Positions 33,601 to 36,600 of a stretch of 64,000 nt of DNA are shown in pieces; position 1 is the stretch's first letter, and the number at the start of each line of letters is the position of its first letter. The DNA comes from Escherichia coli (GTDB lineage Bacteria > Pseudomonadota > Gammaproteobacteria > Enterobacterales > Enterobacteriaceae). A program made the position numbers. The stretch lies in the NCBI RefSeq assembly GCF_030013205.1, contig NZ_CP122648.1. One strand, 5' to 3'.

Positions 33601-36600
33601 TGGCGACGTCCGCAATCATCTGCCGCTGCGGCGCACGGGGAATAAAGTCGGGGATCTGTTCCTGAAGCGCCTTATACCAGGCGGCAATTTGCGCTTTAAG
33701 CGCGGCGGTTAATGCCATGAGAAAACCTGAAATACTGTATAAACAGCCAATATTGTGGCATTTTTCGGTTTTCAGGGGTAATGGTTTTTCTGTTTCTGGA
33801 AAGCGGCTCGCAAACACGCCCTATCGCAATATATTTGATTGAAAGTTCGACGGCACAGTGAGCGCCAGTCTTCAGGGCAGAAAACAGCAAGTGATACCGC
33901 ATTTCGTGGTTACACTTGCCGCCGTCATCGCTTCCCAGGAGCCGGTATTGCCCGCCCTGGCCTGAGCCAGGGCCATCAATGCCATTATCCTGTTGGGATC
34001 TTTACAGCCATGCGTCTGGCGTCCACTCGGATAAAACTTTAGAAAAACGATATTGTGCGTAGCGGACCATATCACGATATAACGAACTTATACGCAACTG
34101 GTTGGCCTCTTCATTAGACAGATTATTGAAATCAAGCAATACCGTTTTGTATGTATTAAAAGTTTGACGGCTTATCATACTTTCATCTAAAGAATAAGCT
34201 TTCGCCAATAAAGCAAATGCATAACGTTTTAAAATTTTTGACGCATCAGGAATACCGTAAAAGACATTACTGTGAGAAATATTTGCAAATATGGCAGACA
34301 GACAGAAAAATATTTTAGACTTATCACTTTCACTGGCCTCTTTGAGATCCAGCGTCGTTAATAGATTAGCGTAATGTTTATCTTTCAGAGTATGCTGTTG
34401 CCATTGGCCTAAATCGGTCATCAAAGAGGAAAATAATGATTTAAATTCTGTCGGTTGATTATCCGATTCTGGCACAAAGTCTGTTTTTCGCATTATTGCT
34501 GACATAAATACATCACGAATATAACCTTTCAATCCAAGAGCATTGAGAATCAATTGGTGTTTCTTATTTTTCTGCGCATATTCCCATCCTTTTGCAAATA
34601 AAGGAAATGCACGCGTACAAATCGTTTCTGGATCATCTCTGACATCTTCATGGGTATCCTGCAAAGATGGATATATAGAGTAATTATTCCAGATAGTCTT
34701 TTTCTTAACCTCTGGCTCAAGCATTGAGATTAACGCCTGGTGCGATAAGCGCATTACTCGCCCAGAGTTATCGGATGATAACAGGATATAACATTTATTA
34801 TCTTTATCTAACAATCCTTGCAGCTGATTGAAATTCAACTTTATTTCTTCAGTAACGAATTGTTTTATTTCAGGTAATACTTGATAATTGTGATAAAGGT
34901 CAAATGCTAAGTTTTTCTCTTCAACACTTCTGTTTTCAAAAAGCAAATCAACAAATTGAATAAATCTATAATTTTCAGAAACCATCAACTCTGGTCTCTT
35001 TAAAAAGAGAGCATAGAAAAAGTTTATTATTTCCGCATCGTTACTCAGATTTTTATTTCTGAAGTAGCACAGATACGTATCCAATACACGCATAACAAGT
35101 TCATGATCGCTATTAAGTGGGGATTTTAATAGTTTTGCTATTATGGACGATGGGAATGCTACCATGTCCCGCAGCGTGAAGAGTTCCATGCCATCAGTTA
35201 ATTGCGTTAACAAATCTTTTACTGTTTGTATGTTATCAGTACTATCATTGAATGATTCGTCTGCCAGAGAATCCAGTTTTTCAATCATCCCCCCGATTAC
35301 AAATATATCTTTTTCGCTCTCCACGTCATGATTAGACATATCATCGACGATATCTTTAACTTTACTATCACTTTCATATAGTTTTTCTCTCACAATATTA
35401 TTAGCGTTTACTGCAGAAGTCGCATCATAATAGGATGGCGGAATAATAACAGAGAATTCGTTAGTGAATATAGAATGATATGCAAGATTATCATCATTCA
35501 ATTTCTCGCCAACGTTTAGCGAATTAACATTCCTCAGAATATGCATCTCAATCTGACTGTCAGAAAGACTTTTAGAAAAACCACTACCTTCAGTCAGTTC
35601 AATTTTCATCCTGAGTATTTTATTTTTGAGGTCGGAAAATGTATTTACATAGGGAATAAAAACATCTGACAAATTAGAGTTGCTTTTCTTTCCATTAATA
35701 TTATCTATTCGGACGGTGATCCCTTTCTCATCACGATGAATTGCATCATTCATATTTATAGAGATCACATTTTCATGTCTGGATTGCCCGGTTTTAATCG
35801 TCATATTGATATCATTTGCGCTGATCTCCGAAATCTCACTGACGAATTTTTTAAATGCATTATAGCGCTGGTGGCCAGCATTAAATTTGCCAAATGAAAC
35901 ATAATATGCGAAGTGTTCAAGGAAACCATGTAATTCCAGTAAATTAACCGGGTCAGAACCCTGCACCATATTTAATAACATCGTCGCATAACCATTGCAT
36001 TTTGAACAATCCATACACCGCTCCTTTGCACATGAATGATCTGCGGATCATAAGCCTGGCAAAATAGGGAATCTTACAGAAATCGCTCATTTTTAACTTT
36101 TCGTACTGCAAACTCAGGATCAACCGGGTTATGAAAGTCTGCTGCTGTACGGATCTAAACAGGCTGGCAATCAATCTTTCTATCAATAAGCAGAAATGAG
36201 CGATTTTTGATAGTTAATTTAAATTACTTCATTGTAATACTTTGATTATCTATAGCTTGCACATAATGATTACTTATTATTTTTATCAATTTCAATTTGA
36301 CGTATTAAAGGAGTTAATATACATAATTTGTTTGAGCAGTGGCCATTATTTAAACCTAACACACCAGGCAATTCCAACTATTTCCCTGACAACTTATCTA
36401 TTACAGATATGGTTTTCTGGTTCGATAATAATGCCAAAAAACTGTTAGATGTTATTAACAAAACCACGAACTATGAACAAAAGCAAATATTCATTCAGCA
36501 TTTAACATCAACCTTATATAATAACAAGGTATTGAACAATCCTTACCATTTAGAACCGCAAAAAATCTCGAATGAGCAGATAGCCTTACCAATAATTAAT

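Follow-up and report, generated by a model that had tools for sequence, protein, structure and literature searches.

The 64,000-nucleotide stretch of Escherichia coli DNA analysed here (contig NZ_CP122648.1; "the window") carries, just upstream of the helicase gene dinG, a 20-bp SOS box that we identify with high confidence as the known asymmetric LexA operator of the dinG-ybiB operon. This operator is already textbook material, and the finding is confirmed but ordinary. On the plus strand, 33733-33752 is TACTGTATAAACAGCCAATA; on the dinG strand this becomes the reverse complement TATTGGCTGTTTATACAGTA, the exact string with a TTG...CAG arrangement that had been quoted in the first-pass annotation, found here on the minus strand. 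That annotation was also right in calling the site the SOS box of dinG with an unusual operator: the gene is dinG, and the TTG half-site is as in K-12 (PMC8265657). Genes were placed using the RefSeq annotation of NZ_CP062203.1, a swine isolate that is 100% identical across the tested kilobase. The features concerned are:

33733 to 33752, minus strand: dinG SOS box (LexA operator); the K-12 operator as given in PMC8265657 and PMC3009722 (Table 4) has the same sequence.
33719 to 33813, minus strand: dinG regulatory region retained beside a genomic island; 95 nucleotides, 100% identical to K-12 MG1655.
31568 to 33718, minus strand: coding sequence of dinG (ATP-dependent DNA helicase DinG; RefSeq annotation of NZ_CP062203.1).
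30578 to 31540, minus strand: ybiB, second gene of the LexA-controlled dinG-ybiB operon (gene from the same annotation, operon from PMC10123104).

What makes the box credible is that it equals the published operator, where it lies and how well it is conserved. It agrees with the published K-12 dinG operator at 20 of 20 positions, and zero such matches are expected by chance; the SOS boxes of UV (ultraviolet)-induced genes in Table 4 of PMC3009722 include AATATTGGCTGTTTATACAGTATTT. The same box occupies 833036-833055 in MG1655, whose RefSeq record has no regulatory feature annotated there. A comparison with the K-12 promoter, which the first-pass annotation had proposed as a check, gives complete agreement: in addition to the operator, 95 of the 95 nucleotides upstream of the dinG ATG (33718) are identical to MG1655. 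K-12 also has the 14-nucleotide gap from box to ATG, and dinG-ybiB as the operon that follows. The dinG coding sequence is 97.0% identical at the nucleotide level to that of a K-12-like strain (714 of 717 aligned positions in the protein, stop codon included), and because this divergence stands beside 95 unchanged non-coding bases, the latter suggest constraint on the dinG upstream region. An open reading frame (ORF) listing that reaches 33817 is merely an in-frame upstream extension of dinG.

In K-12, dinG-ybiB is reported to form a LexA-regulated operon (PMC10123104, PMC11981726) and dinG transcription is induced by UV (PMC3009722). The dinG promoter is UV-inducible with a low median effective dose (ED50) and is counted among the "early" promoters (PMC5999292), in keeping with a weak operator. 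PMC8265657 presents the K-12 dinG operator, with its non-consensus TTG half-site, as experimentally characterised with LexA, citing Lewis and Mount 1992 (J Bacteriol 174:5110; "asymmetric dinG operator").

The two halves of the box are unequal. The right half, 33742-33733 (TTATACAGTA), is a perfect consensus half-site with CAG at 33737-33735, and the weak left half, 33752-33743 (TATTGGCTGT), has TTG at 33750-33748 and lacks the consensus C of CTG. The two trimers are 10 nucleotides apart, which is the consensus spacing. Overall 15 of 20 positions agree with the consensus TACTG(TA)5CAGTA, and because of the five mismatches a search for this consensus with up to three mismatches returned no match. 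Since that search gave nothing, the box was scored with a symmetrised position weight matrix (PWM) derived from the 17 further E. coli SOS boxes in Table 4 of PMC3009722, with dinG left out of the training set. Strict consensus is no requirement for membership among LexA operators: the TTG deviation is a documented feature of the accepted dinG operator (PMC8265657).

With this matrix the dinG box scores 14.5 bits, third in the 64-kb window and within the range of the 17 known SOS boxes (from 13.7 bits for polB to 28.5). The top match is a canonical box that served as internal positive control:

56521 to 56540, minus strand: uvrB SOS box, AACTGTTTTTTTATCCAGTA, 24.1 bits.

Both boxes span 20 bp with 10 nucleotides between the trimers, both have CAG as the right trimer, and both lie at the promoter of a DNA-repair gene. 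They differ in that the uvrB box pairs CTG with CAG, whereas the dinG box has TTG and a left spacer containing G and C (GGCTG). The heterology index, calculated on the same site set with a formula after Lewis et al. 1994, is 9.3 for the dinG box when dinG is in the training set, the weakest of 18 sites; without dinG in training it is 12.8 or 7.8, depending on orientation.

Within E. coli the operator is practically invariant. Of 5,426 complete genomes, 5,421 contain a 60-mer centred on the box, and in about 5,400 of these it is 100% identical, island or not. A single T-to-C change at 33750 would create the canonical half-site, and such a change was never seen: a 63-mer query with C at box position 3 had zero full-length 100% matches, and its full-length matches all showed the one expected mismatch. 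The canonical CTG variant of the dinG box thus occurs in none of the E. coli genomes searched.

Among the few genomes with partial matches are two E. coli isolates in which an ISL3-family element interrupts the dinG SOS box (NZ_OZ547226.1, locus L089, 2530-3860; and NZ_CP135653.1, locus L090). The insertion site corresponds to window positions 33739-33746, with an 8-bp target duplication CTGTTTAT (box positions 7-14). One of the elements is ISKox3 and the other ISEc53; the latter adjoins a ClbS/DfsB-family gene and a truncated ybiA. Both insertions separate dinG from the predicted -10 element described below and from the left operator half.

Conservation extends well beyond E. coli. We scanned species-representative genomes with a pattern that fixed ACAGTA and the first dinG codons and left the other 14 box positions free, so the resulting set is conditioned on a conserved right half-site. 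The scan returned 85 loci, from Citrobacter, Enterobacter, Klebsiella, Raoultella, Kluyvera, Kosakonia, Lelliottia, Leclercia, Pluralibacter, Pseudocitrobacter, Salmonella, Escherichia and others, and the box is TAGTGGCTGTTTATACAGTA in 76 of the 84 readable ones. Box positions 1, 2 and 4-14 are 97-100% conserved among 76 distinct sequences, and positions 6-14 (GCTGTTTAT) reach 99-100%. Position 3, where the consensus has C, behaves differently: across 84 Enterobacteriaceae species it is G in 81, T in two (E. coli and E. albertii), A in one (E. whittamii) and C in none. Immediately upstream, an element AA-ag-TG-c-CACAA is conserved as well (TG 100%, positions of the CACAAT hexamer 89-100%; 76 distinct sequences, 83 loci), and above it conservation drops to 33-83%. 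Some 32 bp, which begin at the predicted -10 element and take in the whole operator, are therefore near-invariant in the 84 species, with the consensus-C position as the one exception. That position 3 is never C is suggestive; it falls short of proof of selection because its variation amounts to only two or three evolutionary events.

The conserved upstream element contains what we predict, from sequence and conservation, to be the core of the dinG promoter:

33752 to 33760, minus strand: predicted extended -10 element TGcCACAAT, with TG at 33760-33759 and the hexamer CACAAT at 33757-33752.

The last base of this element is the first base of the SOS box. A LexA dimer would bind the 20-mer through its consensus right half and a left half without the C of CTG. 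Starting at the last base of the predicted -10, the box would cover the expected transcription start, which falls in the left half; because of this overlap with the -10 and the start, bound LexA would block RNA polymerase at the dinG promoter, presumably by promoter occlusion. Since the operator is weak, dinG would be released early, at low doses of DNA damage.

Flanking the -10 element and the box is an inverted repeat (33721-33732 and 33762-33776), which on the dinG strand reads CCTGAAAACCGAAAA ... TTTCAGGTTTTC and has 7-nucleotide perfect arms, CCTGAAA / TTTCAGG; its upstream arm is Escherichia-specific.

Upstream of the retained dinG region the window departs from K-12 and carries an island that replaces ybiA and its flanks:

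33814 to 38106, unstranded: replacement island, 4,293 bp in place of ybiA and flanks; 28-39% GC except for the first 188 bp.
33814 to 34001, minus strand: island end of normal GC content and 3' flank of the effector gene; 188 bp, found in the 541 island-bearing genomes only, once in each.
34002 to 36014, minus strand: espX2-like type III secretion effector of 670 amino acids; it has a SopA_C domain and shares 93% identity with O157:H7 EspX2.
36319 to 38003, plus strand: orphan ORF, 561 amino acids when intact, here split into 115 and 431 amino acids.
38108 to 39469, minus strand: rhlE, the conserved right flank of the island (annotation).

Homology to K-12 stops at 33813/33814, which puts the left junction 61 bp from the dinG box and 95 bp from the ATG. 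The megablast matches of island-less genomes end at the same place (window 33813, query 414), and when the window is aligned with O157:H7 and K-12, the sequences agree from TTGCGAGCCGC as far as dinG, with unrelated sequence beyond that point. The distance of about 270 bp between box and island end given in the first-pass annotation has to be corrected accordingly: it is too large because the border had been set at the effector stop codon and the drop in GC content (about 34002-34020). The same annotation had concluded that acquisition of the island left the operator intact. This holds for the operator, all 95 nucleotides being those of MG1655, but the event was a replacement of ybiA and not a plain insertion.

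The junction itself (33807-33830, minus strand) carries a short direct repeat TATTGCGA(t/G)AGGGCGTGTTTGCGAG, a 6-7-nucleotide duplication of TTGCGA(G), and K-12 has TATTGCGAG once. This repeat could be microhomology, or else a small duplication that the exchange left behind; because of it the breakpoint can be placed only to within about 17 bp.

Several points weigh against taking the box as a working LexA operator in this strain. Of 64-kb windows shuffled at random, 19-20% reach 14.5 bits, and a site in the rlmF coding region of the window (24137-24156, TACTGGTAGTGAAACCAGCA) scores 14.8 bits, above the dinG box. A simple -35/-10 scan of 33600-34100 found no canonical sigma-70 promoter, so that the conserved TGnCACAAT element is the sole basis of the promoter proposal. 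Conservation of box positions 15-20 and of the first dinG codons in the cross-species set is there by construction of the search pattern. Finally, the evidence for LexA binding and damage induction is that of the K-12 literature, and the present strain is known from its sequence. Prediction of a LexA site, the other check proposed in the first-pass annotation, gives a divided answer: the score lies within the range of known sites, yet too many shuffles attain it, and by itself it would not justify calling a LexA site. These scores would speak for a chance LexA-like sequence without regulatory role, and the rlmF site and one inside dinG do score about equally. However, the box matches the published operator at 20/20 positions, lies 14 nucleotides ahead of the start codon of an established SOS gene, does not vary among about 5,400 E. 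coli genomes and hardly varies among 84 species. Chance is thereby effectively refuted, and we give that explanation next to no weight. A separate question is what maintains the block. Positions 6-14 of the box are 99-100% conserved though canonical SOS boxes tolerate variation in the spacer, and G, T and A all occur at the very position by which the left half-site is defined. The constraint might thus reflect promoter or start-site function, a hairpin in the 5' leader (CUGU-UUAU-ACAG; in the DNA, CTGT and ACAG are perfect inverted copies separated by 4 nucleotides) or a second factor on the inner palindrome CTGTTTATACAG, the TTG half-site being no real LexA contact. We consider this unlikely: according to PMC8265657, cited above, experiments with LexA have characterised the K-12 operator, a stem of only 4 bp is too weak to count for much, Rfam has no RNA family at the box, and the predicted -10 and start, which overlap the left half, could alone account for the extra constraint. 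Any such constraint would in any case add to LexA control and not replace it. Somewhat less doubtful, but still tentative, is the view that the asymmetry of the operator is an anciently maintained design and no peculiarity of E. coli, with selection keeping LexA binding weak and the left half owing its constraint less to LexA than to promoter or start-site function or to another factor; if true, weak LexA binding would give dinG-ybiB a low induction threshold.

The island could also alter dinG regulation with the operator intact, if transcripts reading through from the effector gene supplied some LexA-independent dinG transcription. The espX2-like gene and dinG both lie on the minus strand, the effector ending 283 bp upstream of the dinG ATG, whereas ybiA in K-12 points away from dinG; a pattern scan found no canonical intrinsic terminator between effector and dinG; and the 61 bp from junction to box leave little space for upstream promoter elements. 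On the other hand, the 188-bp spacer, taken as minus-strand RNA, folds strongly (z-score -3.3) into two hairpins, at 33983-33944 (GGCCCUGGC-UCAG-GCCAGGGC) and at 33919-33887. The second, a 12-bp stem followed by UGUUUUCU, is likely the terminator of the effector gene and as such a plausible barrier to read-through. Outside infection, AT-rich effector genes are as a rule silent, and operator-bound LexA would still stand in the path of a read-through transcript. We regard an effect of the island on dinG by read-through as improbable. With K-12 the comparison is simple: only DNA more than 61 bp upstream of the box differs, being the divergent ybiA there and the co-directional end of the espX2-like island here. 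Because all 95 nucleotides before dinG are those of K-12, SOS control of dinG would be expected to be unchanged in the island-bearing strain. That dinG keeps the K-12 SOS operator and promoter region beside the island has little import beyond annotation. What is mildly new is comparative: the frozen block of predicted -10 and operator, whose single free position is never C, a spacer between rhlE and dinG that resembles a cassette, and the operator-splitting insertion sequences in two isolates.

The structured 188-bp end is probably the 3' untranslated region and terminator of the effector gene; a small RNA is an alternative reading. An Rfam search of 33000-38500 returned only a chance match to mir-929 (E = 0.5) and no known RNA in the 188-bp end. 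A decayed piece of ybiA had been considered as the origin of this normal-GC sequence and was rejected, as tblastn and sensitive blastn found no trace of ybiA better than chance.

The island lies between dinG and rhlE in all of the 541 E. coli genomes (of 5,426) that have it, and on the right it ends at the stop codon of rhlE (junction 38107/38108). It replaces ybiA and flanks rather than being inserted beside ybiA, and island strains are thus without a K-12-type NADAR protein YbiA at this locus. GC content is 28-39% over 34000-38000, against 52-57% in the flanks. None of the three ORFs of the island is a recombinase, and no repeats bracketing it were found, the TTGCGA(G) duplication of the left junction being the one repeat at a border. 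A tRNA integration site was considered and rejected: the sole ARAGORN call, an 85-nucleotide tRNA-Gly(GCC) at 31888-31972 on the minus strand, falls within the coding sequence of dinG and is almost certainly spurious. The segment acts as a replaceable cassette, not as a self-mobile element.

The espX2 locus of O157:H7 shares with the window both junctions, the effector (93% protein identity), the 188-bp end and an identical dinG regulatory region. It differs in carrying a short form of the island without 1,486 bp, whereas the window has the long form; the short form is found in O157:H7 and 384 other genomes, and the long form in 156 of the 541. Imperfect 23-nucleotide direct repeats at 36206-36228 and 37692-37714, which are 1,486 bp apart, are the exact endpoints of the deletion in the short form. 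Of the orphan ORF the short form retains only about 103 C-terminal codons. This ORF is known from E. coli only, as a single cluster among 5.8 billion proteins (P0001, 561 amino acids, 1,874 members). In the window it is split by a one-base frameshift in a T-run near 36650, which is either a pseudogene mutation or a homopolymer sequencing error. Pfam and PADLOC searches with the two hypothetical ORFs gave no match.

In most other genera rhlE lies directly beside dinG, about 220 bp away and with no ybiA between; ybiA occupies this position only in Escherichia (loci L004-L088). Some Citrobacter, Kosakonia and Pluralibacter genomes carry unrelated inserts of 2-7 kb between rhlE and dinG, and cassettes in E. 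albertii (about 440 bp) and E. whittamii (about 950 bp) have the same breakpoints as the island, 33813 and 38107. Because genera hold different DNA here and shared breakpoints bound different cassettes, the rhlE-dinG spacer is a recurrently exchanged slot, of which the dinG promoter-operator block is the fixed edge.

Two minor observations came out of the scans. Within the 3' end of dinG there is a LexA-like 20-mer, TACTGGATGCATTACCGGTA (31652-31671, 12.9 bits); like the one in rlmF it is probably there by chance, and such coding-region sites illustrate the weakness of the dinG motif when judged by sequence only. One locus of the cross-species set (L044; NZ_JAAGWF010000116.1, 511 bp) is filed under the actinobacterium Geodermatophilus sabuli and has an Enterobacter-type dinG start with SOS box; the contig is probably contamination in that assembly.

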